Part shown: positions 9,801 to 55,486 of the stretch, piece by piece
Layout of the letters: every line of letters starts with the position of its first letter
How positions within the stretch are numbered: the first letter of the stretch is position 1
From: Kiritimatiellia bacterium
GTDB lineage: Bacteria > Verrucomicrobiota > Kiritimatiellia > RFP12 > JAAYLN01
Length of the DNA stretch: 64,000 bases
Direction of reading: 5' to 3'
NCBI GenBank assembly: GCA_017509565.1
Contig: JAFWPM010000115.1
Span: 8,401 to 72,400, forward strand
Made by a program: the position numbers and the translations under genes
Notes under the pieces: model-generated
Databases searched by the model: none
Told to the model about the DNA's origin: nothing
What the model saw: only the letters and a program-made list of their open reading frames with translations

Positions 9801-9830
9801 TGTCAATAAATTGTCTGTCCCTTTATGCTC
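9801..9830. repeat. 30-bp dispersed repeat, copy R1 (TGTCAATAAATTGTCTGTCCCTTTATGCTC)
   Basis: Near-identical to the copies at 36184, 36384 and 55430/55458. It sits between the GH42 stop and the dgt start. Confidence 0.6.
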
Positions 9831-9881
9831 CACCTCTGCGTCCATGCGTAAGACAAACCTTGGGGGTGTCCCCGTTGCGCC

Positions 9882-12017
9882 CTAGCGATTGACGAACAGC
9901 GCCGCCGTTTGGGGGCGGAGCGTTTTTGGTTCGCCGCCAAACAGCTCCTTCCAGCTCCCCGGAGGCAGGCGCACGGGGAGTTCACATTCTCCGTCGTTGA
10001 CGAGGACGGCGAATCGCATGGTCCCGGTTTCGTCGGTCAGGGTGTCGATGTGCATTCCCCCGGCATCGTCCGCCGCCGCTCCGGCGGACGCAAGAACCGC
10101 CGAAAGGGTATGGCGGAGAAACGTGTCGTCGCCCTTTCCGGTGGCGGCCGTCCCGAGCTGGGTGCCGAAGTAGAACACGGCCCCGCCGGAGGCCGTCCGC
10201 ACGCGCACGGCCACCGGCGCGCCGCCGAACCGTGCCAGCACCTCTCCGCTCGCCGTCGTCAGTTGGGCGAAGTCAAACGCGCCAAGCCCCTTCGCCCCGT
10301 CTGCGGCGTCGAAGGCGAAGAAATCGCTTCCGCAGACGCCGGAACTCCGGAGCGCCTTCGAGACGTCGTCCGCGCCATCCGACGCGACGGCGGCGGTGTC
10401 CGCGGACGGCAAATGGACGGCCGCCGTGGCCTCCTCCTCGCGCACGCCCCACTCCTCCGCAAGGCCATGCCCCGGCACCGCCGGCGAGAAGCGCCCGGTG
10501 TCGGCATCGTATGCGCCCAGGTTCATCTCGGAGAGGATGGTCTTGCCCGCGTCCGCGAAGGCCCTGATGGCCGCCGCGTCCTGTCCGCGGAGATACATGG
10601 CCTGGGGCAGGATCAGCACGTCGGCCGACTTCCCCGCCCCGGCTTCGAGCATCTCCGTGTCGCAGAGGGCGAACGGCACATTGAGCCGGTAGAGGGCATC
10701 GCACCAGGCGCCCAAGCCGTCGTGGTAGCGCTTCACGCCGTTGTAGCGGCAGTAGTGGAAGGTCTCGTTGTCCGCGCTTCGCCAGACGAGGACGCGCGGC
10801 GCGGGGCGCCGGCAGCGCAGGAAGGCCGCGGCGTGCGGCTGGAACGCCTTGGCGAACGCCTCGGCATGACGGACGACCGGGCGGTCGGAGCCGTCTGGCC
10901 GCACCAAGCCCCAAGCCGGGGCCTCGCACCCCAGGACTTCGGGACGGAACTGCCAGAAGAGGCAGCCCCTGATGCCCCAGCCAATCTGCGCGAGCTGGTC
11001 GTGCAGGAAGAGATCGCGCCCGACGATGCGCTGGAAGCTTCCGATGGAGCCGAAGTTGAGGTGCCATTCGGCGTTGTAGTAGAATCGGCCCTGCGCGGCG
11101 GAGAGGCCGGCGGCGCAGGCGTAGGGGCCGCCCGTCATGGTCGATCCGAAGATTTCGCATGACCGAGCGAGCGTGAAGTCGTCCACCGCGACGGCCGGGG
11201 AGAAGGCACCGGTGGCCGTCACCACGTGCAGGTGCGGATGCCTTCCGGGATCGACCTCGCGCAGCAGGTCCAGCCGCCACGCGGCGTCCCGGTGCAGCAC
11301 GTCGCGCTGGAAGGCGCGCCAGTCTATGAAGTCGGAGACGCAGCTGGCCTGGACGGGCGCCTCCACGGCGTCGAAGGACGTGTAGCAGCGCCCCCAGACG
11401 GCGTTTAGCCGCCCGATGGAGCCGTACCGCCTGGAGAGCCACTCGCGGAAGGCGCGCCTGCAGTTCCCGCAGAAGCAGAGCGCGGGCATGGCGTCGTTCG
11501 TGCGGTGCGCCGCCATGCGTTCCGGTTCGTTCCAGACGTCCCATGCGAGAAGCGCGGGCGCGTCCCTGAAATGCTCGAAGGCGGCCCGCGCGAAGCGCTG
11601 GCGCTTCTCCGTCACCACCCGGTGGGAGTAGCAGGGGCCGGGATAGCCGCCAAGCTGGCGGAAACAGGGGGCGGTCGCGCCGACGCGCCGCCCGTCGGCA
11701 TCGACCATCATCGCGTCGGGATGGTCGCGCTCCACCCACTCCGGCATCACGTCCAGAATCAGGTTGAGAATCACATGGAGGCCGTGCCTGGCCGCCAGGC
11801 GCATGAGTTCGTCGAGGTCGTCCCAGAAGTATTCGCCCTCCCGCCGTTCGCTCCAGCGCCACTGGACCCAGAACTTGACAGTGTTGAACCCCTTGTGCCT
11901 CATGTTCGCCAGATCGCCGTCCCAGTTTTCGCGGGCCGGCGTCGGCGCGCGGTAGTATTGCGCGCCGTAGAGGAAGGGAAGCTCGGCCATAGGGGGCCGC
12001 TCGGATGGTAGATTCAT
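9882..12017 (-). CDS. GH42-like beta-galactosidase (GH-A clan TIM barrel)
   Basis: 711 aa. N-terminal YGAQYYRAPTP...GFNTVKF is like the GH42 start, WDVWNEPE is the acid/base region, and the size fits GH42. The family is assigned by motif only. Confidence 0.65.
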   Translation of the reverse strand: MNLPSERPPMAELPFLYGAQYYRAPTPARENWDGDLANMRHKGFNTVKFWVQWRWSERREGEYFWDDLDELMRLAARHGLHVILNLILDVMPEWVERDHPDAMMVDADGRRVGATAPCFRQLGGYPGPCYSHRVVTEKRQRFARAAFEHFRDAPALLAWDVWNEPERMAAHRTNDAMPALCFCGNCRRAFREWLSRRYGSIGRLNAVWGRCYTSFDAVEAPVQASCVSDFIDWRAFQRDVLHRDAAWRLDLLREVDPGRHPHLHVVTATGAFSPAVAVDDFTLARSCEIFGSTMTGGPYACAAGLSAAQGRFYYNAEWHLNFGSIGSFQRIVGRDLFLHDQLAQIGWGIRGCLFWQFRPEVLGCEAPAWGLVRPDGSDRPVVRHAEAFAKAFQPHAAAFLRCRRPAPRVLVWRSADNETFHYCRYNGVKRYHDGLGAWCDALYRLNVPFALCDTEMLEAGAGKSADVLILPQAMYLRGQDAAAIRAFADAGKTILSEMNLGAYDADTGRFSPAVPGHGLAEEWGVREEEATAAVHLPSADTAAVASDGADDVSKALRSSGVCGSDFFAFDAADGAKGLGAFDFAQLTTASGEVLARFGGAPVAVRVRTASGGAVFYFGTQLGTAATGKGDDTFLRHTLSAVLASAGAAADDAGGMHIDTLTDETGTMRFAVLVNDGECELPVRLPPGSWKELFGGEPKTLRPQTAALFVNR

Positions 12018-12080
12018 GGGAACGATGATATCACTTGCCCATGCGTCCCGCTACACCGTTTTGCGCATCGTGGATTTATC
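12018..12080 (-). promoter_or_regulatory. conserved leader/promoter element upstream of the GH42 gene
   Basis: Minus-strand GGATAAATCC..TTTGCGCAAAACGGTGTAGCGGGACGCATGGG..AGTGATATCAT-7nt-ATG. The same pieces recur upstream of the hydrolase at 19551 and the regulator at 36057. Confidence 0.35.
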
Positions 12081-12216
12081 CATTCGAGCAACGAAGCGCG
12101 CCGCCGGACGGGAGGGACGCGCTTCCGCGCGACCACGGTGAGGACGGCGTCTTCCGTTCCCGGCCTTGTATTCGGCGGGTTCCTCGCAAGGGGCGCAAAG
12201 CGAGGCTTCGCTTCCG

Positions 12217-13284
12217 TCATGGAGTTGGCTGCGGAGCAGAGGTTACGAGGACGGCGGCGTTGACCGGATCCCCGGAATACCAGGCGACGAAATGGCGTCC
12301 GCCGGACGAGGTGGAGTTGGCGTTGCCAGAGTCGTGCGGACGCACCTTGCCGCCTTGCGCAAGGATTTCCGGCACTGGCCAGGCCATCGGGTTGGCGGCG
12401 ATGTCGGCGGCTTTCGCTACACGGCGCTTGAGCAGTCCGGGACCGCGCTCGTAGTAGTAGCAGGAGAGGAGTCCCGTCGCCGGATCGAAGACAAGGGAGG
12501 GCGTCGAGGCATTGACGTCCGTGATGTTGGTGCGATGCTTCGTCCAGCTCGCCCCTCCGTCGTTGGAGAGGAGTTGGAGTTGCCCCGCATGGCAAATTTC
12601 AGTGCGGGTGACGGCGAGGATGCGTCCGTCCGGGAGAACGACGGCCGAGGGTTCTGTCGGCCACTCGGACTTCGGCATGCCCAGTTCAACCGTGTGCTGT
12701 TCCCAAGTGGAGCCGTTGTCACGGCTCATGAGCGTTCCCCACGCATTGCGCGCGTCGTCGCAGTAGTTTCCCGCGAACCAAAGAGACATCAGGACTCCGC
12801 CCGGAAGACGGAGGACGTCGGTGATTTGTATGGGCTCGGGGTCGAGTGACGGCGAGGCGACCCTCTCCCAGACAAGGCCGGCGGAAGATCGGTAGAGGCC
12901 GTGGAAAGTGCCGGTGTCCCAGCCTCCGGCTCCCTGCCGGCGAACCCAGAGGAGCATTGCACCGGAAGCATCCAACCCCTTGCCGACGACGCACTCCCCC
13001 CATTCCGGGGAATCCGCCACGCAAACAGGTTCGCCCCACGACGCGCCACCGTCGTCGGAGACGCGGGCAAACGCCCCGCGGGATCCTTCGCCGGTTGAGT
13101 GCCCCTTGCCGCTGCTGTAGGCGCATACGACGCGCCCTCCGTCCAGAGCCTGGACCATGGGCCAGGAGTTGTAGCCGGGACGGTTCTCCACCATGCGGGT
13201 GGGGAACTCGGAGTTGGCGAAGAGGTCGGACGCCGCCAAAGATGCAACCAGGGACATGGAAAAACCGTTCAGGAGCGACGCTTT
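12217..13284 (-). CDS. BNR/Asp-box repeat glycosidase (sialidase-like, secreted)
   Basis: Signal peptide MKASLLNGFSMSLVASLAA. Three Asp-boxes: SDDGGASW, SRDNGSTW, SNDGGASW. No FRIP motif was seen, so sialidase specificity is tentative. Confidence 0.7.
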   Translation of the reverse strand, partial: KASLLNGFSMSLVASLAASDLFANSEFPTRMVENRPGYNSWPMVQALDGGRVVCAYSSGKGHSTGEGSRGAFARVSDDGGASWGEPVCVADSPEWGECVVGKGLDASGAMLLWVRRQGAGGWDTGTFHGLYRSSAGLVWERVASPSLDPEPIQITDVLRLPGGVLMSLWFAGNYCDDARNAWGTLMSRDNGSTWEQHTVELGMPKSEWPTEPSAVVLPDGRILAVTRTEICHAGQLQLLSNDGGASWTKHRTNITDVNASTPSLVFDPATGLLSCYYYERGPGLLKRRVAKAADIAANPMAWPVPEILAQGGKVRPHDSGNANSTSSGGRHFVAWYSGDPVNAAVLVTSAPQPTP

Positions 13285-13401
13285 CATGATTTCAACTCGT
13301 TGAGAACAATGCCTGAGACGCGGCGTACGCCGAAAAGAGGGTGATCCTTGAAAAGCTCTTGACTCGATACGCAAAAATACTAGCAAACCGCCTCGTAAAA
13401 C

Positions 13402-14694: not shown

Positions 14695-14731
14695 GACAAT
14701 CTCCCGGTCGGGGCTACTGCTTCCAATGCCC

Positions 14732-22676: not shown

Positions 22677-22751
22677 ATTGCGCTCCTTGCCGTTTACGCC
22701 TTCAATTCTAGCAAAACGCGGGGCGAAATCCAAGTTGAAACTGTTGAAAAA

Positions 22752-22801
22752 TGTTGCCAATGTGAAAATGTTGCCAATTGCCAATGCCAGCTGCCAATTG
22801 C
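22752..22801. repeat. tandem TTGCCAAT-type repeats (about 5) in the upstream region of the ATPase gene
   Basis: ATGTTGCCAATGTGAAAATGTTGCCAATTGCCAATGCCAGCTGCCAATTGC. Confidence 0.4.
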
Positions 22802-22806
22802 TTTTA

Positions 22807-22859
22807 GCCACAAAGGACACAGAGTTCCCAAAGTCTGTGTGTTCCTTTGTGTTCTCTGG
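22807..22859. repeat. palindromic RPE-like element, intergenic copy E1
   Basis: GCCACAAAGGACACAGAGTTCCCAAAGTCTGTGTGTTCCTTTGTGTTCTCTGG. Its arms are imperfectly complementary (G:T wobble-compatible) and homologous to the in-ORF copies at 35246, 57470 and 59090. Confidence 0.6.
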
Positions 22860-22916
22860 GGCTGCAAAATGGATATTGGCAACATTCAGAAAGGTTGAAA
22901 GGTCAGAGACGGAAGG

Positions 22917-25339
22917 TCATCGTGTTCCGTCCACAAGGACGGAAAGGTTCTGCCCGCGCAGGTAGCGGATGGAGATGTCGTGGCCACGCCAACGGAGATT
23001 GTCAAGGACGAACCAGTCCCACGCCGGATCGGCGAGCGGATCGACGCGGTAGCCGCCCTCGCCGTCTGGGACGAAGCCGCAGAGGCCCGTGACAACGAGG
23101 TCGCAGAAGGAGGAGTGGTTGTAGTCCTTGCCGCGTTCGCGCGGGAAGCGCGCCCGCATCTCCGGGTCGGAACGCATGATGGTCCGCGAAATCCAGTCGG
23201 GCTTGTCGGGGTTGAGGTTTTCGTCGATCCACGGCACGACGGTCCAGCCGTCGTCGCGGTCGCGCGTCCGCTTCTGCTGCGCGGCATACTGCCACATCAG
23301 GAAATCGAAGGCCCGCCGCCCCTCTTCGGACGGATGCGCGTGGAGGTCGTTGGCAAAGGCCGTCAGGGCGATGGAGGTCGCAAAGGGCCAGCTGGGGCCG
23401 TTCCACTGGCATTCGTGCCCCTCGTATGCGATTTTGAAGCCGGGGGCGCGGCGCTCCGGGAAGGTGAGACCGTATTTCGCGGCGAAGCCCTGCGGGTCGG
23501 AGAGCTGCGACCAGTCCGGTGCCACACCGACGGGAACGCCGAAATACCACGGCGCGTAGCCGTGCAGTTCGCGAACGGGATTCAGCGTCCCGTCGCAGCC
23601 TCGCGTCGAGAAAAAGCTCGTTCCAGTGTTCCAGCACTTCTCCATCAGCGCCTTGCGGACGCCCTCCGCCTTGGCCTCGAACTCGTCGGCGAGCGCGTCG
23701 CGGCCCGCTCGGCGCGCGACGGCGGCGATGCACCGAGACTCGCTCCACATGGCGCTGTTCATGAGCGGCTTCCACCCGTTTCCGCCAAGGGAGTATTCGG
23801 TGCCTTCGCGGGAATCGACGGAAAGGAAGCCGCCCGCGCCGTCGCCACCCATGCGGCCGGTGTCTTGCGCAGGCCAAAGCGAAATGCCGTCAAAGCCCTC
23901 CTCCCAGCGGCGGTAGTAGCGGACGGCGTCGTCGAGAAGCCGGACGGGAAGCTCGTCGAGGCCATGCGCTTCGGCGAACTGGCAGCAACCCGTGAAGAGC
24001 CAGCTCGAATATCGCCAGCGATGCTCCGACTGGGGGCCGGCGAGCCAGAAGCGGGCATGGTCCGCAAGATATCTCGGGTCGCGCAGCCAGCGTCCTTCGC
24101 GGAAGTGGTGGCCCGCCGGGCAGACGATTGTGTTGTCCGCACCGCTCCACGAGACCTTGGGCAGGAACTCCGTGACGCGCCACCCGCCGTCCGCGCCCCG
24201 GCGCAGATGCTTGCGGTAGGTCCACCAGCGGAAATAATACGTCCGCTCGATGTCCTTGTCGGGGCAGGCGAAGCGCGGGACGTTCTCCAGCATCCACGCC
24301 TCCGCATCGGCGTTCGGGATCGCGTTCGCGTAGAGTTCCTCGTCCATCGCGTTGAAGCGCCGGACGTAGTCGCGCAGAATCTTTTCCGTGTCGGGCAGGC
24401 GCGCGGGCGACGCTTCTAGGTCGAGTCCGCCGTGGACGGCGCAGCCGACGTATTCGGGGAAGCCGCTGCGGCCGTTGTAGTAGAGGAGCCAGCGGTCGTT
24501 CGCCTCGTCGCGCACGGCGGAGGGCTTGTAGGTCGCGCTGCCGTCCCACGTGCCGAGGTCCGGGGCCACGATGGGGTTCTGGTGAATGCGCCGCCAGCCC
24601 GTCACGCCGTCCTCCGACACGGCCGCGCCGATGCGCGCCGTGTCGATGTCCGAGTAGCCGATGTAGAACATCGCGAAGCGCCCGTCGGGAAGGGGATGCA
24701 CCTCGCAGCCGCCCACGCGGTCGCGGTCCCACGAGTCGCGCGGGCCGTGCGCGAAGACGGGGTTGCCCTCGAACTTGCGCCATTCGAGGCCGTCGGCCGA
24801 CTCCGCGTAGCAGATGACGTTCGGCTCGTAGGTCTCGCCGGCGGCGTACCACATCCGCCAGACATTACGCTCCGCGTCCCAGCGGACGTAGGGATTCATC
24901 ACGGAGAGCTTTTCGCAGTCGGACTCTGGCACCAGAACGGGTTCGCGCCGGACGCGCGCGAAGCGTACGCCGTCTTGGCTTGTCGCGTAGCCGATGCTCG
25001 ACATGCCGCCCGCCTGGCCGGTGTACCACAGGTGCCACACGCCGTCGCGGAAGACGGTGCAGCTGCGGTTGATGTTGTCCTCCCAGCCGCTCGCGGGATC
25101 GGCCTCCAGGCAGACTTCGGGCTCCTGCGACCAGTGGAGGCCGTCGCCGCTGCGGACGAGGGCGATTGCCTTGCGCGGCCGCCAGGAGAAATACATCGTC
25201 CAAGGCGCAGGGCCGTCGCGCACCACGTTTACGTCGAAGCACGTGCCGAGGCGCTCGCCGCCCAAAATCGGGTTTCCTTCGAACTTCGTCCAGAGGCCGG
25301 CGATCGGGCCGGTCCCCTTTTCCATTTCATTGTTCATTC
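22917..25339 (-). CDS. two-domain glycoside hydrolase: N-terminal GH130/GH43-like five-bladed beta-propeller plus C-terminal (alpha/alpha)6 barrel (GH63/MGH1-like)
   Basis: N-terminal FEGNPILGG...WTMYF...WHLWY...FEGNPVF...FAMFYIGYS blades. C-terminal RWWTYRKH...GHECQWNGPSWPFATS six-hairpin-like. Start at MNNEMEKG (about 25339). Confidence 0.6.
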
Positions 25340-33134: not shown

Positions 33135-34568
33135 TCACTCCCTGCCCAGCAGCTTCGCGGCGGGCAGGATAAAATCAAAATATCCGTCGGCCGGGACTGT
33201 CTTGGCAAGATGCCCGTCATAGACAAGTGCCGTCCGTATCGAGGTGTCGGTCATTCTGCGAAGCACCTTGACCTTTTCGGCGACCTCATCAACGATGCCG
33301 CCATCGATCACCCGCCGCCGCTTGATCTCCACGACCATCATCGAGCGCCTCGTCTGAATGAGCAAATCGATCTGGAGGCCCCGGACGGAGGAGCCGGCCT
33401 TTCGCGCGTATGGCGCGGCCGACAGGACTAGCGACGATTCAAGGCCAAGGTGCGGGAACAGGTCGGGGATATGGGACAGGATTAGGTTTTCAAACTGGAA
33501 ACCGAGCAGCGATTCCCATCCTGGCAGCTGCTCTAGTGACGAAAAGCGGAACAACCCCTCCTCTATGGCAGTCCTCCTCGGCTCGATGGCGTGAAGGTAG
33601 AACCTGGCGTAATTGTCGCTTATGCGGTAGCGTTCAAGCCGGAGCGGCTTGCCCGTCATCGGATTCAATCCGCTTTCCCTTGCGGCGAAGCCCGCCAGCC
33701 GGAGGTCTTTCAACGCCTGCGTGATTGCCCCGTTGGGGACTGTTTTCATGATGGCGGCCAGCTGGGAGGCGGATTTCGGGCCGTCGGCCAAAAGCCGCAA
33801 AACGCGGCCGCGGCTTTCCGTCCGGCGTCCAAGCACGGCGGAGAAAACGTCGTCGAACTCCCTGAAAAGAAGCGCACGGGGCAGGAAACACATTCGGCGT
33901 ATGTTCTCGTCGGCGGAAAGCTGCGGCTTGATTTCCTCGAGATACTTCGGGACGCCGCCGGTAACCGAAAACAAATCGAACAGCTCCCCGGATGACAGCC
34001 TTTCCGCATTCGGACCCAGCATCTTTACGGAATCGGCCAGTGACAGTTCCTTTATCGCCAGGTCAAGGGAATCGCGCCCGACGAACCCCGTATTGTCGAG
34101 TATGTTCTCCGCAATCCACGAGGAAACGCTGCCACACAGGACGAAAATCAGATTGGGGTGCTTCCTGAGACGCTTGTCCCACGCCTCCTTGAAATACCCG
34201 GGGAAATCGGGGCAGTGGCCGCCAAGCCAGGAAATCTCGTCAAGAAGCACAACCGTCCTTGCGTCATTGGGGATGATGCCGTCCAGCTGGGCGAAGGCCA
34301 ATGACCAATTCGAGGCCGACTGGCTATCTCTTTTCGCGTATTCGGCTATTCGTTCGCAGAAATGGCGCCGCTGGTCGGCGTCGGTCACCCCTTTTCTTGG
34401 GGGCAGGCCTTCGATGGCGATGAAAAACTCGGCCGTCCTTGCCGCGAACTCCTCGATCAGCGTGCTCTTGCCTATGCGTCGCCGTCCCCGGCATGTGACC
34501 AGGACGCCGGAATCGCGTCCCCACAAGGCTTCCAGCGCACTCAATTCATCGTCTCTTCCGACAAACAT
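33135..34568 (-). CDS. archaeal-type ATPase (Arch_ATPase/PF01637-like) with C-terminal DUF234 domain
   Basis: MFVGRDDELSALEALW...GRRRIGKSTLIEEF (Walker A) ... VLLDEISW (Walker B) ... C-terminal MMVVEIKRRR...DEV. Somewhat lower GC, and an AT-rich upstream region. Confidence 0.8.
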   Translation of the reverse strand: MFVGRDDELSALEALWGRDSGVLVTCRGRRRIGKSTLIEEFAARTAEFFIAIEGLPPRKGVTDADQRRHFCERIAEYAKRDSQSASNWSLAFAQLDGIIPNDARTVVLLDEISWLGGHCPDFPGYFKEAWDKRLRKHPNLIFVLCGSVSSWIAENILDNTGFVGRDSLDLAIKELSLADSVKMLGPNAERLSSGELFDLFSVTGGVPKYLEEIKPQLSADENIRRMCFLPRALLFREFDDVFSAVLGRRTESRGRVLRLLADGPKSASQLAAIMKTVPNGAITQALKDLRLAGFAARESGLNPMTGKPLRLERYRISDNYARFYLHAIEPRRTAIEEGLFRFSSLEQLPGWESLLGFQFENLILSHIPDLFPHLGLESSLVLSAAPYARKAGSSVRGLQIDLLIQTRRSMMVVEIKRRRVIDGGIVDEVAEKVKVLRRMTDTSIRTALVYDGHLAKTVPADGYFDFILPAAKLLGRE

Positions 34569-34794: not shown

Positions 34795-36057
34795 TCACGG
34801 ATGCCAGTTGCGCTTGCGCCACTCGCCCATGGACATCCCGGTGCGTTTTTTGAAGAGCCAGTGCAGCGCGATGTGGGAGCGGAACCCGCAGAAGTCGGCA
34901 ATGGCGCCAATGGGTGTGTCCGTGCGGGAGAGGAGCGTGAAGACCTTTTCGAGTCTGACGTGCAGGATCTCCTTCAGCGCCGAATGCCCCACGGCCTCGC
35001 GGAAGCGAAGGTCGAAGAGCGGACGCGAGCAGCGGAAGCGCTGCGCGAGTTTAGCGACCGTGAGTCCCTCGCAGGCCTCGCGTCGTATGGTCTCCATGGC
35101 TTCCAGGACGAACGGTTCACGCCGCCCGAAACCGCCTGTCGATTCCCGCCGCACGGCAAGCAAAGGCTTGACGAGAATTTCCGCGCCCCGAGTCTCGATG
35201 GAGGTTTTTTTGACAGGATTTAAAAGATTGACAGAATTTTTGTCAGCCACAGAGGACACAGAGTTCACATAGCCTTTGTGCTTCTTTGTGTTCTTTGTGG
35301 CTAAAACATCCCCAATGGCCTTTGCCGCCAGATACCCGGCCAGTTCGTGGTCGATCTGAATGCTGGAAAGCGTCGGGTGTGATGCCTCGCAGAGCACCGG
35401 GTTGCTGTCCACGCCGAGCAGCGTCAGGTCGCGCGGGATGGAGCGGTGGCAGCTCCTGGCCGCGGCGGCGGTTTCCACCGCTGCAAGATCCCCCACCGCA
35501 AAAATGGCGGTGTGGTGCGGAAGGGCGGCGAGCCACCGCGCAAGTCGCGCCTCGCGGAGCTCCTTCGCCTCGTTGCGCCATGGAAGGCGGGAAAACGGCT
35601 TGCCGGACGCGGCGGCAAGCGCGGCGAAGGCCCGCTCGCGCCGGAGCGACCAGCCCCTCCTTCCCGTCGGCCAGGCGAACGGCACTACCGCAAACGCCTC
35701 GGGCAAACCGGCGGAGAGCTCCCGGAAGGCCGCTTCGGCGATGGCCGCGTCGTCGTAGCCCACCCGTACGCCGCGCCCGCCGTAAAGGGTGGGTTCCGCA
35801 TGCATGTAGACAACCGGCACCTCGCCAAAGAGCCTCGGCGGAAGGTCGCGGCGGCCGCAGGAGCAGTCCACGACGCATCCGGCCACGGGCTTGTGCGCGG
35901 CCAGCAGATCGTGGATGGCGTCCGGACGCGACTTTTCTGGCGGCACGACAACAACGTTCCATCGCAGGCTGTCTGCGCATCGCCGCATTCCGGCAAGACT
36001 CGCCGCCTGCATGCGTCCACCCATGCTGGCATCAAGATAGAGTATTGTCGCGCTCAC
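34795..36057 (-). CDS. XylR-type regulator (PBP-I sugar-binding domain plus AraC HTH) carrying an in-frame RPE-like insertion
   Basis: PBP-like N-terminal (ILYLDASMGG...AIFAVGDLAAV...LLGVDSN). C-terminal AraC HTH (LAQRFRCSRPLFDLRFREAVGHSALK). A low-complexity insert ATKNTKKHKGYVNSVSSVADKNSVNLLNPVKKTSI is encoded by repeat E2. Probable GTG start at 36055-36057. Confidence 0.75.
   Translation of the reverse strand: MSATILYLDASMGGRMQAASLAGMRRCADSLRWNVVVVPPEKSRPDAIHDLLAAHKPVAGCVVDCSCGRRDLPPRLFGEVPVVYMHAEPTLYGGRGVRVGYDDAAIAEAAFRELSAGLPEAFAVVPFAWPTGRRGWSLRRERAFAALAAASGKPFSRLPWRNEAKELREARLARWLAALPHHTAIFAVGDLAAVETAAAARSCHRSIPRDLTLLGVDSNPVLCEASHPTLSSIQIDHELAGYLAAKAIGDVLATKNTKKHKGYVNSVSSVADKNSVNLLNPVKKTSIETRGAEILVKPLLAVRRESTGGFGRREPFVLEAMETIRREACEGLTVAKLAQRFRCSRPLFDLRFREAVGHSALKEILHVRLEKVFTLLSRTDTPIGAIADFCGFRSHIALHWLFKKRTGMSMGEWRKRNWHP
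35199..35303. repeat. palindromic RPE-like element, copy E2, in-frame inside the regulator gene (105 nt, 35 codons)
   Basis: Hairpin core GCCACAGAGGACACAGAG-TTCACATAGC-CTTTGTGCTTCTTTGTGTTCTTTGTGGC (35246-35301). It is preceded by TTTTTTTGACAGGATTTAAAAGATTGACAGAATTTTTGTCA, which shares motifs with the island-flank arrays. Confidence 0.7.
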
Positions 36058-36150
36058 TTCAAATCGGGTTCTAGTCCAAGTTGTGTGATTCCGTTTTCAT
36101 GGCGCGAAGGATAACTCGCCATGGTGATGGACAAATGCTACCATTGCGCA
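36058..36150 (-). promoter_or_regulatory. partial copy of the conserved leader/promoter element upstream of the regulator
   Basis: Minus-strand ...GCCATGCGCAATGGTAGCATTTGTCC... It shares the TTTGCGCA / GGTAGNAT / GCTAC pieces with the copies at 12018 and 19552. Confidence 0.3.
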
Positions 36151-36183
36151 TGGCAAAAGTCAAGCGATTCCCTTCAATGGCAG

Positions 36184-36213
36184 TGTCAATAGATTGTGTG
36201 TCCCTTTATGCAC
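36184..36213. repeat. 30-bp dispersed repeat, copy R2 (TGTCAATAGATTGTGTGTCCCTTTATGCAC)
   Basis: Identical to R3, in direct orientation 200 bp away. Confidence 0.7.
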
Positions 36214-36269
36214 TGCCTGACTTATTTCTCATTTGGAATCTCTGGGCGCAGGAGTTTTGGACAGGATTT

Positions 36270-36330
36270 TGACAGAATTGGCAGGATTTTTTGGAACAGC
36301 AATCCTGTGAATCCTGTCAAACCCCCACAC
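36270..36330. repeat. array of GACAGGATT / TGACAGAATT / AATCCTGTC motifs (left flank of the AT-rich island)
   Basis: GGACAGGATTTTGACAGAATTGGCAGGATTTTTTGGAACAGCAATCCTGTGAATCCTGTCAAAC, with nested inverted symmetry. It is related to 38826-38895 and to the left part of E2. Confidence 0.55.
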
Positions 36331-36383
36331 GTCTCGATAGAATGCCTGTGCCCCAACTCTCTATGCCACACGGAAGTTCTCGT

Positions 36384-36413
36384 TGTCAATAGATTGTGTG
36401 TCCCTTTATGCAC
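36384..36413. repeat. 30-bp dispersed repeat, copy R3
   Basis: TGTCAATAGATTGTGTGTCCCTTTATGCAC. Its reverse complement supplies the codons ..KGHTIY-stop of the truncated transposase ORF. Confidence 0.7.
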
Positions 36414-36562
36414 ACTTCACAGCACTCAGGGCATACCGCCGCCTTCTTCGCGTATTCGACGAAGATGTCAACACGCCTCCCCTCCACGTCGAGTTCAACT
36501 TTTGAAACCTCACATTCCTCGCCAACACCAAGCAGAACCGAATAATGCTCGTTCACATCCAT
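36386..36562 (-). mobile_element. ISL3-family transposase, N-terminal zinc-finger fragment (58 aa, truncated at repeat R3)
   Basis: MDVNEHYSVLLGVGEECEVSKVELDVEGRRVDIFVEYAKKAAVCPECCEVCIKGHTIY matches the ISL3 zf N-terminus pattern (LLGL..V..VE......I.V......CP.CG......G). The remaining ~350 aa are absent. Confidence 0.5.
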
Positions 36563-36867
36563 GACTTCATTACCTCTTCCTCTCTATCATAGCATTTCCA
36601 AGCCTCTTTTGCCGTCACCTCTGGCACTAACTTTGGCCTCCCTTCCACAAAAAAATTGGAAGAACCATGAATATAGGCATTAGTTGGCCAATTTGCTCCA
36701 GGACAATATGTTGTTGGGGTAGATGTAAGCATGGAATCTATCTGCCTGGCAATGCCATCAACATCAATTTCACCATTGAAGCACCTTATTCTAAAACCTG
36801 CGTTACCGCGCGAGAAATACAATGATGCCCCAACATGCTTTGCTGCTTCTGCAGAAATGTTTTGCAC
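36553..36867 (-). CDS. hypothetical protein (AT-rich island)
   Basis: 104-aa ORF in AT-rich DNA with no recognisable motif. Its stop overlaps the start of the transposase fragment. Confidence 0.35.
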   Translation of the reverse strand: MQNISAEAAKHVGASLYFSRGNAGFRIRCFNGEIDVDGIARQIDSMLTSTPTTYCPGANWPTNAYIHGSSNFFVEGRPKLVPEVTAKEAWKCYDREEEVMKSWM

Positions 36868-37002
36868 AAGGCAGAAATCCCCTATTCCAACGTATGCCTT
36901 ATATAATGGATAGCAGAGCGTCTATTGGCGCTGAACACATTACTAAATCTTTCAGTAGAGCATATCTTGCTTTTTCCGCATCTTTTGCGAATAAGATGCT
37001 AA

Positions 37003-37308
37003 TTACAGCGTTTTTTCAGTGCCTTTAATGTGTAAATCCTCAACAATGCAAATATCTTTGCCGTCTTCAAGAGGTGAAAAATCGGCATCAGGGAAAAGAG
37101 TCAAAAGCTTTTGGATAATATCTTCCTTTGTGAAATAATCGCACGGATCGTCAAACCTAAAGCTTGCTCTTACGCAATAGTAATCAACCCTCCGCATCAA
37201 CACTTCGTCCATATTACTAGTCCTAAAACCCACCGCTTCAGAAGAAATGCTTGTGGTGGGGCTAAACATAAGTAAAAGAATTGAGGAAATGCTTGGTATA
37301 TATTTCAT
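37003..37308 (-). CDS. hypothetical small secreted protein (AT-rich island)
   Basis: Start MKYIPSISSILLLMFSPTTSISSEA (signal-peptide-like). About 100 aa, AT-rich codons. Confidence 0.4.
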   Translation of the reverse strand: MKYIPSISSILLLMFSPTTSISSEAVGFRTSNMDEVLMRRVDYYCVRASFRFDDPCDYFTKEDIIQKLLTLFPDADFSPLEDGKDICIVEDLHIKGTEKTL

Positions 37309-37325
37309 GGATCGCTCCTCCAAAA

Positions 37326-38645
37326 TCACCTTAAATAGACAAGCGGCACTATACAAATGTCTTCAACGTCGCCAGCATGCGCGGCTTCGGGGCTTGTTGA
37401 TACATCTATGGCTTCTGCAAGGTATAATTCGAGGCTTTCCCCCAAGCATGGACCAGCACAAGCATCGAAAATTATTCCGTTGCATAAGGCAAAAGCATGA
37501 TTGCCAAAGGGAACGCGTAATGGCAAGATTAAGTCTGGATCTACATTTGGGCTGGTGCCATTGCTCATGTAGAATGGATTATTACACAACCCTACGCCCA
37601 CTAAGTTTAACGAGTTTATATACCCAAATGGCGTCATATACAAAAAATACGCTTCAAGCCCTAATGCTGTCGCAAGTGAAACAACTCCGCTTGCTTGATC
37701 ATAACAATTGACGACACTTCCACTTGTTTTTCCAATGTATTCCGATAAGGAAAAGACAGCAGCAGCTGTTGCCGTATAATATAATGGACTGCCGCTTGTG
37801 GTATCATATGTTAACCCATGCCCACTATGCAAATATTGGGTGATTTCCTTCATGGAATTGAAGTCGTTTTTACCAGAGCACCCAGCTGTTTCTATAGCGA
37901 ATGACAAAGCACTGACCCAAGGGTTCTGTGAACTGTTTGCCGTCTGAGTCCATGGCGCTTTGGGATAATCCCAGAGCGTATAAATCACATGGCCGGAAGT
38001 ATGGTCACTAACAAGCCCAAGGGACGACACGTTTAGGCCATCAACTTCACTAAAGCCCCACGTCCATGAATCAACGGATTTGAAAACCGTTGAAGGCGTT
38101 TGCCCCGCTAGTTCAAATTCAACAAATTCGCTGTTTCCTCCTGTAGGCGATGTGCTTTGCGAAACACCGCTAGCAAATGCGACAGACCTTTCCAGAGCAT
38201 CACCCAACGAGCCATTGTCATCATCAGACAGTCCATATATTTTCGCCGAAGATATGGATGACGGGGCTATCGAGAATGAGACCTTGATTTTGGCTACAGT
38301 ATTTCTGATATAGGCAACCGGGTAATTCGACATATCCCTGACATATTCCGGAAGTGGCAAATTTTCGTCATATGCCATCCTTATGTTCAGGGCATCATCA
38401 ATTGCGGAGTCTTGTTTGTAGTTGAACCATATTTTTCTGACTTCAATTTTTACCGCAGTCAACTTCACCTTATCGGAACATTTGAAAATGTCTTTGTTTT
38501 CGCCATCAACATTCTCGTCATATTCAAGGTTCAGCTCGATATCGCGCATTGCGGCGCTTGGAGCGACGCCCTCGACGTAGAGAGTCCCTGGCATCGCCGA
38601 CACCGTGTCCCACGTCTTCGGCAACGTTACTTCATGCGTCCTGCC
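37326..38645 (-). CDS. hypothetical protein, about 440 aa, Cys/His-rich C-terminal region (AT-rich island)
   Basis: Long ORF with AT-rich codon usage. The first ~40 codons lie in GC-rich DNA. Motifs include AGCSGKNDF...YLHSGHG...CNGIIFDACAGPC (possibly peptidase-like, unassigned). The start is uncertain (MGRTHEVT or downstream). Confidence 0.45.
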   Translation of the reverse strand, partial: GRTHEVTLPKTWDTVSAMPGTLYVEGVAPSAAMRDIELNLEYDENVDGENKDIFKCSDKVKLTAVKIEVRKIWFNYKQDSAIDDALNIRMAYDENLPLPEYVRDMSNYPVAYIRNTVAKIKVSFSIAPSSISSAKIYGLSDDDNGSLGDALERSVAFASGVSQSTSPTGGNSEFVEFELAGQTPSTVFKSVDSWTWGFSEVDGLNVSSLGLVSDHTSGHVIYTLWDYPKAPWTQTANSSQNPWVSALSFAIETAGCSGKNDFNSMKEITQYLHSGHGLTYDTTSGSPLYYTATAAAVFSLSEYIGKTSGSVVNCYDQASGVVSLATALGLEAYFLYMTPFGYINSLNLVGVGLCNNPFYMSNGTSPNVDPDLILPLRVPFGNHAFALCNGIIFDACAGPCLGESLELYLAEAIDVSTSPEAAHAGDVEDICIVPLVYLR

Positions 38646-38825
38646 CATGTCCGCCCAGACCTTTATCCGCGAGCCGCCGATTAAGGGGCCGCGGCGTCTG
38701 CCATGCCGGCAGGCGCCGCAAGAGCGACAAACCAATGTTTGAAAGCAGTCATGCGCGAGACTCCCTCCGCAGGGTTTTCAGTCGCCGCCTATTCTACCAG
38801 AACAAAGCCCGCCATGCAAGGGGAC

Positions 38826-38895
38826 GGAGGTTGTCAGGACAGGATTAACAGGATGGACAGGATTCTAGAGACCACAATCTTGTTAATCCTGTCAA
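38826..38895. repeat. array of GACAGGATT-type motifs (right flank of the AT-rich island)
   Basis: TGTCAGGACAGGATTAACAGGATGGACAGGATTCTAGAGACCACAATCTTGTTAATCCTGTCAAAAAAA. A 12-bp perfect inverted repeat GACAGGATTAAC / GTTAATCCTGTC. It ends AATCCTGTCAAA like the left flank. Confidence 0.55.
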
Positions 38896-39056
38896 AAAAA
38901 GGCGACATTTGACATTCGACAGCCGACAACCCAGCCGACATTCGACCTTCCGGCCTTTAAACCTTTGACGGGTCGTTCTTAACGAAACCCTGCACGTTCC
39001 ACGCGGTTGGGATTTGCGGCATCGCCATGCCCGCTACGCACCGGTGGCTTGGACCG

Positions 39057-45848: not shown

Positions 45849-45857
45849 GACACTAGC

Positions 45858-47175: not shown

Positions 47176-47198
47176 CATGGCTCACGGAGGAAACTTCA

Positions 47199-47660: not shown

Positions 47661-47704
47661 GCGGCGAAGGCCATCATGTGAGGGACTCCAGGCGGTTTGG
47701 CAAA

Positions 47705-48436: not shown

Positions 48437-48445
48437 GCTATACTG
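48437..48445 (+). promoter_or_regulatory. extended -10 box TGCTATACT 6 nt upstream of the purD ATG (leaderless geometry)
   Basis: AAATATGCTATACTGGAAGC then ATG. The spacing puts the transcription start at or next to the start codon. Confidence 0.4.
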
Positions 48446-48450
48446 GAAGC

Positions 48451-50180: not shown

Positions 50181-50197
50181 GCGCACTACCAGCCATG

Positions 50198-51304: not shown

Positions 51305-51309
51305 GCGCG

Positions 51310-52485: not shown

Positions 52486-52531
52486 CGCCCCCGCATGGCA
52501 TTCGCCACCATGGCAAGCAAATTCACCGCAA

Positions 52532-53597
52532 AATGAAGAAAATCGGTATCGGTATCATAGGATGCGGCGTCATAGCGCCGACGCACGCCGAATCATACGC
52601 GCTCGACAAGAACGTAAGGCTCGTTACCGCCTGCGACGTTATCCCTGAACGCGCCAAGGCCCTGGCGGAGCGCTTTGGATTCAAAGGGACGGCCACGGAC
52701 GCCGCCGACGTGTTCGCGGACCCTGGGATTGACGCCGTCAGCATCTGCACCCCGCACTTCAACCACGCTAAGCTGTGCGAGGCCGCCCTCGCCGCCGGCA
52801 AGGACGTGCTATGCGAAAAGCCAATCGCCAACACCCGCGCGGGCCTCGCGCTCGTCAGGAAGGCCGAGGCCAAATATCCGGACCGGATATTCTCCGGCGT
52901 TTTCCAGCACCGCTACAACCCCGTCTTCAGGGAACTCCGGCTCCTTGTCGGCGAAGGCGCCTTCGGGACAATCGCGACGGCCGCCTTCCACAACCGATGC
53001 CTGCGCACGGATTCCTACTACAGCGCAGATTCCTGGCGCGGGACAAAACGCTATGAAAACGGCGGCGTCCTGATCAACCAGGCAATCCACTACCTCGACA
53101 TCTTCCAGTGGACAATGGGCGGCATCGACTCCATAGCCGGCGCCTCAATGGCAAACCGGACCCACCAGAACTCCATCGAGACCGAGGACACCATAGCCGC
53201 CACAGTCCTTTTCAAAAACGGGGCGATCGGCACAGTCGAAACGACAAACTCCGCCATCATCCACTGGGACACGATGCTTGAAATCACGGGCAGCGACGGC
53301 TTCGTGTCAATCACCGACGGCAACATCGTCAGGATGGAGTTCTCCAACCCCGCCGCCGCAAGGCGCATGAAGGCCGCGCAGAAGGCCCACGACGCCCGCA
53401 ACAGGAAGGTTGACGGCGTCGGGCGCTCATACTACGGCCTTGGGCACCCGTCGCAAATCGCCGACTTCCTCTCCTGCGTCCGCAGGCGCGGCCGGCCATT
53501 CGTGACCGCATCCGACGCCAGCGTCGCCGCCGAACTCGTCCTTGACATCTACCAGGCGGCCGCAAGGCGCGCGAAGAAGGCCCCGGCAAGGGCCTGA
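52532..53597 (+). CDS. Gfo/Idh/MocA family NAD(P)-dependent oxidoreductase
   Basis: MKKIGIGIIGCGVIAPTHAE ... CEKPIA ... the characteristic N-terminal Rossmann and EKP motifs. Confidence 0.85.
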
Positions 53598-53643
53598 CAC
53601 CGGGGGCAGGGCCGGCGCCTTCCACCCGCAAACACCTTCGACC

Positions 53644-54615
53644 ATGGTCTCGAACGCAACGGTTACCGCTAATTCCGCGGAAGACGGAATGCGCCTTGAC
53701 CTCTTCATCATGGCGCATTTCCCAGGCGCCTCGCGTTCCCAGGTCCGCGACGCGCTTTTGCGCGGCGACGTCCTTCTCGGTGGCCGCAAGGCCGGCAAGG
53801 GCGCGAAAATACGCGCCGGGGACATTGTCACGGTCGCAGCGCTGCCGGAGGCGCCCGACAACCACGTCAGGCCGGACCCGTCGGTAGCCCCGCGCATTGT
53901 CTACGCCGACGCCGATCTGGTTGCGGCCGACAAGCCGGCCGGCATGCCTGTCCAGCCCCTGTCCGCCGACGAGGGCGGCACCCTCGCGGGCGGCATGGTT
54001 GCGCTATATCCGGCCCTTGCCGACGTCGGAGACGAGCCGCTGATCGCCGGCGCGGTCCATCGCATCGACGCAGGCACATCCGGCCTCGTCATCTTCGCGC
54101 TCACCGCCCAATCGTTCTCCGGCATGCGCAGGCAGTTCGCCAACCGCGAAGTCGCAAAGAAATACCTTGCGCTCGTCGAGGGCCATGTCGCCCGCGGCGG
54201 CGCGATAGCATGCGAACTTGCGCACACCCCGCGGCTGGGCTTCTGCCGCATGGCCGAATACGCCGCCCTGCCGGCTCCGGACAGGGCCAGGGCCAGGCCG
54301 CTATTCGCAGAAACCAGGTTCAGGCCTCTCCGCCAAATAGGCGGAAGGGCGCTTCTGGAAGTTTCGATCGAAACCGGGGTCACCCACCAGATTCGCGCGC
54401 AGCTCGCGCTTTCCGGCCATCCAATTGTCGGCGACCGCACCTACGGCGGCGGCGACGCCTCCGGGCTTGCCCCGGAAAACTGCTTCTGCCTGCACTCCCT
54501 CTCCGCAAGATTCCGGCACCCGGTCTCCGGAGAATGGATGGACATCGCGACCCGGCCGCCCGCGTGGGCGCGGCAAATCCAACCCCATGCCCAAGGACAA
54601 CGGAATGGCAATTGA
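53644..54615 (+). CDS. RluA-family pseudouridine synthase (RluD/RluC-like, with S4 domain)
   Basis: S4-like N-terminus (RLDLFIMAHFPGASRSQVRDALLRGDVLLGG). Catalytic HRIDAGTSGLVIFA (HRLD..TSG motif). Confidence 0.8.
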   Translation: MVSNATVTANSAEDGMRLDLFIMAHFPGASRSQVRDALLRGDVLLGGRKAGKGAKIRAGDIVTVAALPEAPDNHVRPDPSVAPRIVYADADLVAADKPAGMPVQPLSADEGGTLAGGMVALYPALADVGDEPLIAGAVHRIDAGTSGLVIFALTAQSFSGMRRQFANREVAKKYLALVEGHVARGGAIACELAHTPRLGFCRMAEYAALPAPDRARARPLFAETRFRPLRQIGGRALLEVSIETGVTHQIRAQLALSGHPIVGDRTYGGGDASGLAPENCFCLHSLSARFRHPVSGEWMDIATRPPAWARQIQPHAQGQRNGN

Positions 54616-55375
54616 ATTCATCCAATCGAAATGCGTGAAATGCGGGCGCTGCGCCCAGGTGTGCCCTTGCGGCGTAATCGGGATGAAGGACGGCCAAATG
54701 GCCGCAATACGGGAAAAGAACTGCATGGGCTGCCGACACTGCTTCGGAGTCTGCCCTGCCGGGGCCATTGTTTTCGATGGCGAAATCCCGGTCCCGGCAT
54801 CGGCGGCGAAACTTCCGGATCCTGAGGAGGTGCTCGCGCTCATGGAGCGCCGCTACTCCTGCCGCGAATACAAAAACGAGCCGATTTCACCGGACAAACT
54901 CGCGATGCTGCGCCGCGTGCTTGACTGCTCGCCGACAGGCTGCAACAGCCGTGGCTGCAAATATGCGATACTTGCGACGCCAGAGGAAACTGGCAAGTTC
55001 CGCGATGAGCTATACGAGCGGCTTGCGGCGCTGCCGCCCGACGTGGTGAAGGCCGACGCCACATTGCGGACCCTGGCAATCATGCGCCGCCGCGGTGGCG
55101 ACCCGATTCTGCGCGGCGCGCCCGGCGTAGTTGTCGCGTGCTACGAGGCGACGGCGGCTACCGGATACGTTGACGCCGTGATAGGCCTGTCGAAATTCGA
55201 GACGATGGCCCAGGCCCTTGGCCTCGGGACTTGCTGGTGCGGGTTCCTCGCGAACTCAAGCGGGACGCTATGGCCAGGGCTCCCGGCTGAACTGGGGCTG
55301 GGCGCCAACCTGACAACCGCGTACGCCATGCTATTCGGGGAGAAGGCCTTCGGGTACGCGCGGCCGTGCCGCTAG
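54605..55375 (+). CDS. ferredoxin (2x[4Fe-4S]) fused to a nitroreductase-family domain
   Basis: CVKCGRCAQVCPC and CMGCRHCFGVCPAGA clusters, then a nitroreductase-like region (RRYSCREYKNEPI...). Ribosome-binding site AAGGA 7 nt before ATG 54605. Confidence 0.7.
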   Translation: MAIEFIQSKCVKCGRCAQVCPCGVIGMKDGQMAAIREKNCMGCRHCFGVCPAGAIVFDGEIPVPASAAKLPDPEEVLALMERRYSCREYKNEPISPDKLAMLRRVLDCSPTGCNSRGCKYAILATPEETGKFRDELYERLAALPPDVVKADATLRTLAIMRRRGGDPILRGAPGVVVACYEATAATGYVDAVIGLSKFETMAQALGLGTCWCGFLANSSGTLWPGLPAELGLGANLTTAYAMLFGEKAFGYARPCR

Positions 55376-55429
55376 CGGCCGCGCATAAGGGGACAGACAA
55401 TATGTCGGGAGGCAGGTAAAACAAAGAAT

Positions 55430-55486
55430 GAGATAAGATGTCTGTCCCTTTATGCACACTGTCAATAAGATGTCTGTCCCTTTGTG
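55430..55486. repeat. two tandem copies (R4 partial, R5) of the 30-bp dispersed repeat
   Basis: GATAAGATGTCTGTCCCTTTATGCACAC then TGTCAATAAGATGTCTGTCCCTTTGTGGAT. R5 overlaps and provides the GH78 stop codon. The upstream GGGACAGACA (55390-55400) is complementary to TGTCTGTCCC. Confidence 0.65.

Follow-up and report, generated by a model that had tools for sequence, protein, structure and literature searches.

Correia elements (CREE/NEMIS) of Neisseria, RUP and ERIC-like miniature transposable elements (MITEs) are built of non-coding units of ~100-150 bp with terminal inverted repeats of 20-26 bp; they are intergenic, often lie past gene ends, fold into long hairpins once transcribed, may have promoter-like hexamers at the termini and give rise to length variants through internal indels. 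In all these respects they resemble the repeat described here (R), which was studied in a 64-kb stretch of a gut Kiritimatiellae genome (the window). Correia elements, however, duplicate a TA target, reach hundreds of copies and have a defined host range, whereas for R no duplication was observed, most copies are solo ends and the sequence is not similar. REP, REPIN and BIME sequences are like R in occurring at gene 3′ ends as short extragenic singlets, tandem clusters and hairpin-forming inverted doublets, but the REP unit is palindromic and preceded by a conserved tetranucleotide, while R is asymmetric and no RAYT was found in the window or the fetched loci. Ends of the Tn7, Mu, IS21 and Tn402 type contain an asymmetric site of ~20-30 bp, directly repeated within one end and inverted at the other; their counterparts in the window are the contiguous R5 and R4 (32 nt), R3 and R2, 200 bp apart, and the inverted R6, and many R copies have 5′-TG at the outer terminus (G|TGCATAAAGGG). 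This likeness is architectural only, and the R unit differs in measuring ~110 bp, with transposition genes absent between or near the ends. Integron attC/VCR-type sites, finally, are similarly species-typical, hairpin-forming units of ~60-140 bp, set in one orientation at ORF 3′ ends and sometimes holding the stop codon. R, in contrast, has neither RYYYAAC/GTTRRRY cores nor a cassette array, and its copies are spaced 19-26 kb apart among housekeeping genes. An attC identity was rejected, as the doublet ends GCGCATAAG...CTTTATGCAC lack the RYYYAAC...GTTRRRY cores, and protein-family scans of the window and fetched loci detected no IntI.

R is 20-30 bp in size and dispersed over three intergenic loci of the window (table 1). 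The initial annotation had recognized a genuine repeat but counted five copies, where there are six, and placed the start of R5 at 55458 instead of 55460. A search for the 30-mer with up to three mismatches returned the copies at 9801 (three mismatches), 36184 and 36384 (both exact), with 0 expected from shuffles. The 17-nt core TGTCTGTCCCTTTATGC additionally detects R4 (55439), R5 (55471) and an inverted copy on the minus strand (55383-55399), giving six matches in the window against 0.04 expected, and an nhmmer profile of R found the same six and no others in the 64 kb. A chance origin is rejected on these figures. Five of the six copies share one orientation. R4 lacks the TGTCAAT head and the outer end of R5 is degenerate (TTTGTGGAT), while the similarity between R1 and R3 extends inward to 52 nt in total (to 9778 on the R1 side; long unit of R3, 36360-36411). 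On one side, similarity stops abruptly past TTTATGC(R)C; on the other it decays gradually or, in R1 and R3, continues, a pattern that fits the terminus of an element and its interior. The only symmetry is a 4+4 nt CAAT..ATTG dyad, restricted to the window subfamily and absent from the conserved core.

Table 1. Coordinates of the R copies and associated features in the window.
Feature	Position	Strand	Description
R1	9801-9830	+	solo copy; 27/30 identical to R2
R2	36184-36213	+	solo copy
R2-R3 spacer	36214-36383		170 bp; nested GACAGGATT/AATCCTGTC hairpin array at 36260-36322
R3	36384-36413	+	identical to R2 (30/30)
ISL3-family remnant	36422-36667	-	left inverted repeat, 5′ untranslated region and first 47 codons
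R6	55381-55403	-	inverted copy, 'GACAATAT' end type; minus strand reads ATATTGTCTGTCCCCTTATGCGC
R6/R4 doublet spacer	55404-55429		32 nt longer in strain L030
R4	55430-55457	+	'GACA(A/T)nTTAT' end type
R5	55460-55489	+	tandem copy, 32 nt after R4; left-type end
GH78 alpha-L-rhamnosidase	55462-58080	-	full length; only the variable C-terminal tail overlaps R5

An inverted arrangement is found in the gap between the convergent nitroreductase and GH78 genes, where R4 and R5 had been located and where R4, R5 and R6 indeed lie between the two stop codons, R6 beginning 6 nt past that of the nitroreductase (55373-75). The stem of 10-11 bp previously noticed near R4 reflects a real pairing, but its partner is the sixth, inverted copy and the stem measures 17-19 bp. 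R6 and R4 thus pair as a 76-bp inverted doublet, whose folding energy lies between -29 and -36 kcal/mol (z between -4 and -5.3). The doublet is found in all strains; that of strain L030 (98%), 108 bp long, differs only by a 32-nt spacer indel, which indicates stable doublet ends around a variable interior. Furthermore, an unrelated metagenome contig of 49% GC (L024) carries an independent doublet of 129 bp and an extra third copy. Its orientation is that seen in the window (GGGACAGACA first, TGTCTGTCCC second), and both of the asymmetric subterminal signatures recur there (left, TTTATCyC; right, CGACATAT). Stems are 17-20 bp throughout, with z about -4 to -5 in the window and L030 and -2.6 in L024. 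Among the three window loci, only that of the R6/R4 doublet has a short unit enclosed by terminal inverted repeats.

The GH42 gene (stop at 9882) and an HD-domain gene (start at 9633), both on the minus strand, are separated by 249 nt; R1 occupies this gap, upstream of the HD-gene operon at a distance of 168 nt. R2 is 127 nt upstream of the start of an AraC/Peripla_BP_3 regulator gene (36057), with a predicted TTGACT-17-TAGCAT promoter, outside R, shortly downstream. The direct pair R2/R3, 200 bp apart around the hairpin array, is as first described, and the right 24 nt of the intervening spacer belong to the long form of R3. R3 borders a low-GC island (43-50% versus 65% GC) with a toxin-like gene and the ISL3 remnant; a profile search of the window found no second R at the opposite island edge. 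The remnant aligns at the DNA level with ~90% identity to a copy on L049/L050, and homology stops after ...CCTGAGTGC (CPEC), 8 nt short of the outer (GCAC) end of R3. Its 58-aa ORF (36386-36562), ending ...CIKGHTIY*, has no Pfam match, and the proposed ISL3 identity is upheld by this alignment and by an 86%-identical 68-aa protein recorded as PF14690 (ISL3 zinc ribbon). R itself is not an ISL3 end, since the left inverted repeat seen in the 90% copy and present at 36667 (TGGTTCTTCCAATTTTTTTGTGG) is unrelated to it, and no inverted R is found in the window upstream of the ISL3 transposase start. A large transposon spanning R2/R3 to R6 was also rejected, the interval carrying argG, nusB, ribH, purD and similar genes.

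Beyond the window, the core ATTGTCTGTCCCTTTATGC is also intergenic in other PVC MAGs. Exact 19-21-mers, (T)AAAATTGTCTGTCCCTTTATGC, occur in three of them, in intergenic regions, at non-orthologous sites and with one to three copies per locus; the PVC MAGs with matches include RGIG10146 JAGCUY01 (Kiritimatiellae), CAZNKC01 (Verrucomicrobiaceae) and CAZOVY01 (Brevifollis). Exact matches in 185,579 species genomes number 14, near the ~17 estimated by chance, and of these the PVC subset alone is convincing. Across phyla 19-21 nt of R are identical; conservation in other taxa does not extend to the TTGACA part. In a Verrucomicrobiaceae MAG (L008a) a copy of R directly adjoins an RND pump gene that breaks off at Pfam profile position 204/1021, with no more than ~30 nt between the cut gene and unrelated DNA; there the gene adjoins the presumed inner side of R, whereas the ISL3 remnant of the window lies 8 nt from the outer side. 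Another copy (L014) adjoins toxin-antitoxin and Abi-type genes. 'BNR-like' fragments beside the L008 copies were unconfirmed by Pfam and dropped as evidence. Of the two alternatives raised with the repeat itself, a mobile sequence and a conserved orthologous site, the observations go against the second: R is missing from the 21 kb around GH78 orthologues (~66% identity) and sits at non-orthologous positions elsewhere in PVC genomes, as would a piece of a sequence that is mobile or prone to rearrangement. The structural variation between strains that had been suggested as a check was not seen, R being present at all three loci in ~20 same-species contigs, with the 32-nt spacer indel as the only difference. 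No empty site was found among these contigs, and the relatives with GH78 orthologues at ~66% identity are not syntenic with the window. Comparison by eye of the sequences flanking the copies and both doublets revealed no consistent direct repeat as target-site duplication, the exact termini being uncertain. Searches of IMG/VR, INPHARED and PLSDB gave no relevant matches, the hits being coding sequence of unrelated phages, and a phage or plasmid origin was rejected. No tRNA, tmRNA or Rfam family was detected as the identity of R: no window match reached the Rfam gathering score, and only chance-level sub-threshold hits fell near R. The literature returned unrelated primers only for the motif.

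The reading that we tentatively prefer, at somewhat less than even chances, is that R is the repeat at the termini of a miniature, non-autonomous transposable element and occurs both in doublets and as solo ends. R would be a MITE-like, non-coding family, sporadic in PVC bacteria (Kiritimatiellae, Verrucomicrobiota), whose complete unit would be an inverted doublet of 76-129 bp made of a left end, G(T/C)GCATAAAGGGACAGACA(A/T)nTTAT..., a short spacer and a right end, ...CGACATAT(AT)TGTCTGTCCCTTTATGC(A/G)C. R6 and R4 would form such a unit and R5 an additional, tandem left-type end, while R1, R2 and R3 may be left-type ends made solo by rearrangement, or extra internal transposase-binding copies. 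The element, geneless, would depend on a transposase supplied in trans from another locus; none with R ends was found in the window, the fetched loci or viral contigs. It would occupy intergenic gaps, and the doublet hairpin directly past two convergent stop codons could stabilize or end both transcripts, as with REP and Correia elements. The units are indeed non-coding, small (30-129 bp) and dispersed, with six copies at three loci in 64 kb and others in PVC MAGs; the analysis covered ~76 kb of the source genome. The copies that abut cut genes (ISL3 at codon 47, RND at 204/1021) and the doublet ends conserved in the window strains and in the independent L024 also point to a MITE. Against it, four of the six window copies are solo, unlike the products of simple MITE transposition; simple insertion accounts for only one of the two junctions (ISL3, RND); no target duplication could be made out; exact matches in species genomes are few; and ~20 same-species contigs show neither an empty site nor a presence/absence polymorphism. 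Most likely, R is a real but ordinary case, a previously undescribed repeat of a familiar kind. If the MITE reading is right, it would be the first small mobile repeat family described in Kiritimatiellae and Verrucomicrobiota, which are known almost solely through metagenome bins, and such repeats break assemblies and mark rearrangement points. The understanding of any pathway is left unchanged.

It is possible, although unlikely, that R is instead the att-like core site of a site-specific recombinase or of another sequence-targeted recombination system, with events between two R sites leaving a single compact R at the junctions, which would explain both the truncations on either side and the R2/R3 pair. 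R can indeed be compact, as in L008a (≤ ~30 nt), and R2 and R3 are identical over 30/30 positions while the other copies differ, as expected of attL and attR from one event; the position of R3 at the edge of the low-GC island with its toxin-like gene and ISL3 remnant, the single orientation of five of the six window copies and the toxin-antitoxin/Abi-type neighbours in L014 agree with this as well. However, R lacks the dyad symmetry typical of tyrosine or serine recombinase cores, beyond the 4+4 dyad of the window subfamily; no integrase or recombinase gene was found near any R copy; the other edge of the island carries no R; the 26-kb and 19-kb intervals between copies consist of housekeeping genes; and the conserved left and right types of doublet end are a better fit to transposon ends. 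A Xer/dif-type core was rejected in particular, as GTGCATAA resembles a XerC arm with no matching inverted arm within R. Resemblances to the NrdR box, dif, attC and IS481/IS256 ends likewise failed against the core conserved across taxa.

Rather improbable is a regulatory module, in which an operator or activator site, joined to a -35 box, would have spread intergenically as a 'mobile promoter'. On the minus strand R reads GCATAAAGGGACAsACAATyTAT-TTGACA, followed in R1 and R3, 17-18 nt on, by TGG-CATAGA, like an extended -10. The inner ends of R1, R2, R3 and R5, each with a perfect TTGACA, the conservation of TTGACA-N17/18-TGGCATAGA in R1 and R3, the location of R1 and R2 upstream of the HD operon (168 nt) and of the AraC-type gene (127 nt, near the predicted promoter), the tandem (32 nt) and direct (200 nt) spacings reminiscent of multi-site operators and the CAAT-NN-ATTG dyad of the window subfamily speak for it. 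Yet a consensus scan (-35 and -10 hexamers 16-18 nt apart, with A2 and T6 required in the -10) detects no sigma-70-type promoter at any of the copies, CATAGA having no T at position 6; an intrinsic terminator is not called at R either, R1, R3 and R4-R6 give no hit at all, and the sole minus-strand candidate in the R2 region is the TTGACT-17-TAGCAT promoter. R4, R5 and R6, between convergent stops, have nothing to drive, and the direction of the motif in L014 and L008c is wrong for the adjacent genes, an inconsistency of orientation with the window that argues against a primary role as promoter or terminator. Moreover, what stays identical across phyla is the other 19-21 nt, without TTGACA, and the gene truncations at R are left unexplained.

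More doubtful still is the idea that R is an asymmetric site of ~25-30 bp for an undescribed system of targeted recombination or transposition, shared horizontally among PVC bacteria and acting on R itself, not on a larger element; such a system would leave a single R at deletion or fusion junctions (ISL3, RND, and R2/R3 at the toxin island) and would now and then alter the final codons of adjacent genes. Least probable is a REP/REPIN-type family, with inverted doublets mobilized by a RAYT (an IS200-like Y1 transposase) and singlets that have decayed: the single R unit is not the imperfect palindrome that defines REP, the scanned ORFs of the window and fetched loci give no Y1_Tnp match and the two doublet ends are of distinct types, against which stand the intergenic positions, often just past gene ends, the combination of singlets, a tandem pair and a hairpin-forming inverted doublet of 76-129 bp, and the fact that no target duplication was identified, as Y1 transposases would lead one to expect.

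R had originally been proposed as the terminus of an element inserted into coding sequence. Of this, the mobile-like behaviour is supported, with R3 8 nt from the cut in ISL3 at codon 47, while an interruption of GH78 is not. The GH78 assignment is borne out by Pfam, and the gene ends ...STKGQTSY* (stop TGA at 55462-64), R5 supplying its last ~7 codons and the stop. Pfam coverage and a C-terminal alignment show the Bac_rhamnosid_C domain and the conserved ...PG..P.E...G.H.I end intact; past that end homologues carry unrelated tails of 3-8 residues, 8 in the window GH78, which was not interrupted. The common ending K-G-(Q/H)-T-(S/I)-Y-stop of the GH78 and ISL3-fragment ORFs is present as described, but its six codons do not betray a common insertion mechanism. 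The reverse complement of R has TGA and TAA in frames b and c, so that an ORF entering from the GCAC side stops inside R in two of three frames; thus, GH78 and the ISL3 remnant share a short tail, and two ORFs in the same frame at R are about a 1-in-3 event. The shared tail is genuine but trivial, a side effect of stops in an AT-rich repeat within a 65% GC genome. An ATPase_2 gene lies beside R in the window and also in L009 (the two are 48% identical); this was judged coincidental. Repeats of this kind do create spurious or altered ORF ends, such as the 7 residues added to the rhamnosidase tail, and the 58-aa 'hypothetical protein' ending in R3 stands in public databases.

The dispersed repeat (R) described in the initial annotation is real: the 30-mer matches at 9801 (three mismatches), 36184 and 36384 (both exact), where shuffles are expected to give none, and its 17-nt core, TGTCTGTCCCTTTATGC, also occurs at 55439 and 55471 (plus strand) and, inverted, at 55383-55399, making six occurrences in the window against 0.04 expected. 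Exactly these six copies, and no others, were returned by a profile search of the window. Of the coordinates first proposed, the start of R5 is corrected from 55458 to 55460 and R4 is without the TGTCAAT head; the 10-bp stem seen there is in fact a sixth, inverted copy (R6) that forms a 17-19 bp stem with R4. No copy is present in the further 8.4 kb to the left of the window. Proteins of the window match MAG proteins that carry the label Kiritimatiellae. Several ENA and Logan metagenome assemblies include contigs with identical genes, and R lies at the same three places in all same-species contigs compared.

Features of the window (coordinates on the 64,000-nt stretch) and loci of other genomes carrying R
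Feature	Position	Remark
R1	9801-9830	
R2	36184-36213	
R3	36384-36413	
R6	55381-55403	inverted
R4	55430-55457	
R5	55460-55489	begins 2 nt past R4
R6, 26-nt spacer, R4, R5	55381-55489	86-nt gap between convergent stops (nitroreductase, GH78), nearly filled by three R copies
GH78 (alpha-L-rhamnosidase)	55462-58080 (-)	
ISL3 left end, 5' leader, 47 codons	36422-36667 (-)	~90% DNA identity to L049/L050 copy
~75-nt palindromic unit, AGCCACAAAGGACACAGAG...CTTTGTGTTCTTTGTGGCT	22796-22870, 35235-35309, 57464-57521	second repeat family
Nested-hairpin arrays, GACAGGATT / AATCCTGTC units	35205-35230, 36260-36322, 38840-38900	
Low-GC island	36100-38900	43-50% GC; window overall ~65%
L008		Verrucomicrobiaceae; three copies within 8 kb
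L009, L014		Kiritimatiellae RGIG10146; PVC pattern matches
L012		Brevifollis; PVC pattern match
L024		metagenome scan, 49% GC; three copies

Similarity among all copies stops sharply after TTTATGC(A/G)C, and on the other side fades gradually or goes on; R1 and R3 have 52 nt in common (GCATAAAGGGACAsACAATyTATTGACA...TGGCATAGA). R6 and R4 form an inverted doublet, and in a strain with a 98% identical GH78 (L030) the same three copies are kept, the R6 core being perfect and the spacer 32 nt longer; thus, the ends are conserved and the interior is variable. When 185,579 species genomes were scanned for the exact pattern, 14 loci matched, close to the roughly 17 estimated by chance; four of the 14, in three PVC MAGs, are intergenic, and their identity runs past the pattern to (T)AAAATTGTCTGTCCCTTTATGC(R)C. 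Two of the three L024 copies make a 129-bp inverted doublet arranged as R4/R6, and doublet folding gives z of about -4 to -5 (window, L030) and -2.6 (L024). The subterminal signatures of the window and L024 doublets are GACAATTTATCCC versus GACATyTTATCTC on the left and CGACATATATTGTCTG versus CGACATATTGTCTG on the right, so that the two hosts, distant from each other, share two end types, 'GACAATTT' and 'GACAATAT', which are paired as the left and right terminus. This pairing is the strongest argument for a small element with distinct ends.

R may therefore tentatively be read as the terminal repeat of a miniature non-autonomous transposable element, on the grounds of the sharp outer boundary, shared interior, two end types and small inverted doublets with variable spacers, together with the patchy cross-phylum distribution and nearness to gene truncations. 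The hairpin behind the two convergent genes may, by analogy with REP and Correia elements, serve as a transcript end or stabiliser. The weaknesses of the miniature-element reading are that most copies are solo and that truncated genes adjoin R on both its outer (ISL3) and presumed inner (RND) side. No autonomous partner was found in the window or fetched loci, no empty site in same-species contigs, and no consistent direct repeat by eye at the copy flanks, the exact termini being uncertain. Transposase, integrase and Y1 transposase genes were absent near any copy in protein-family scans of the window and other loci. Truncation on both sides keeps alive an unlikely alternative, a compact recombination site, which would likewise account for R2 and R3 being perfectly identical where they border the low-GC island. 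A regulatory 'mobile promoter' is slightly less likely still: R1 and R3 contain TTGACA-N17/18-TGGCATAGA, and R1 and R2 lie upstream of operons, but this explanation fails at the convergent locus, the promoter scan calls none, and other taxa do not conserve the TTGACA part. Least likely is a REPIN, R not being a palindromic unit.

The R family is undescribed; the kind of element that it would represent is already known. Comparison with Rfam, with tRNAs, phages and plasmids, and with the literature yielded nothing. Orientation relative to neighbouring genes varies: the window copies run antisense to the minus-strand genes that flank them, in L014 there are plus-strand genes both before and after the motif, and in L008c it lies 9 nt past a natural stop. 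In L008a it directly adjoins a gene for an RND pump, truncated at Pfam position 204/1021. In the L008 MAG, copies occur at junctions with gene fragments (1-216 and 6165-6373), namely the pump gene, truncated near residue 204 with support from Pfam, and short pieces of ORFs resembling N-/C-terminal parts of secreted BNR-like proteins, to which Pfam gave no support.

The 58-aa ORF that ends within R3 has no Pfam match; its best plasmid tblastn matches are ISL3 transposase N-termini (E 5e-3 and up), and an 86% identical 68-aa protein, recorded as PF14690, runs on ...CPECGELAGLHDSLAERTWRHLDTM. Aligned with the L049/L050 copy, ISL3 homology ends directly after CCTGAGTGC, followed by 8 nt (TGTGAAGT) and R3. 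By this alignment, the fragment initially annotated next to the repeat is real and cut beside R3. R is not an ISL3 terminus, the ISL3 inverted repeat (TGGTTCTTCCAATTTTTTTGTGG) being unrelated. The related copy (L049 381-587, L050 346-552) is interrupted in frame by TAG after codon 68 (RHLDTM*FET...) and, as read, is also a pseudogene or dependent on read-through.

The initial annotation also took the shared ORF tail as a sign that an element had inserted into coding sequence. The minus-strand reading of the repeat is GTGCATAAAGGGACACACAATCTATTGACA, with frame a open (VHKGTHNLLT), b CIKGHTIY* and c A*; as two of three frames stop within R (entry from the GCAC side), two ORFs both in frame b are unremarkable and the tail is incidental. 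GH78 retains all four rhamnosidase domains (Pfam) and aligns with nine homologues (63-67% identity) up to ...PG.pPrEf.pG.H.I, beyond which each has its own 3-8 residue tail (STKGQTSY in the window). Domain coverage and this alignment rule out truncation by R: the conserved C-terminus is complete, and R would have replaced at most the last few non-conserved codons and the stop. What survives of the mobile-element proposal is a mobile or rearrangement-associated end beside truncated ISL3. Orthologue loci (~66% identity) have neither R nor synteny.

An ATPase_2 (PF01637) + HTH gene (33135-34568) adjoins AraC and R2; its counterpart in RGIG10146 (L009 2181-3617; 48% identity) is beside an R copy, and that in GCA_016648615.1 (contig of P0003) directly follows GH78, which suggests that the gene itself moves around.

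The ~75-nt family has one intergenic copy and two in frame within coding sequence, like Rickettsia palindromic elements, which are likewise inserted in frame in genes. One unit adds ...ATKNTKKHKGYVNSVSS... to the linker of an AraC-type regulator, whose paralogue has a 26-aa gap there; another (LATKNTKRHKVLADSAS) lies in the variable GH78 linker, where homologues have other repeat-like inserts. A 26-nt inverted pair (35205-35230/38875-38900, 92% complementary) brackets the AraC N-terminal half, R2/R3, the ISL3 remnant and the low-GC island. The island holds a gene for a 440-aa protein, then a 101-aa ORF; the former has no Pfam match, its homologues including DUF4150/PAAR-like fusions and 'transglutaminase-like' names, and the island is probably an orphan toxin/immunity-type pair, horizontally acquired, beside the ISL3 remnant. 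Tandem TGCCAAT-like units form a short array at 22750-22800, and contigs of this species from two other assemblies end ~0.7 kb beyond it (~23450-23500), suggesting a repeat-driven assembly break nearby.
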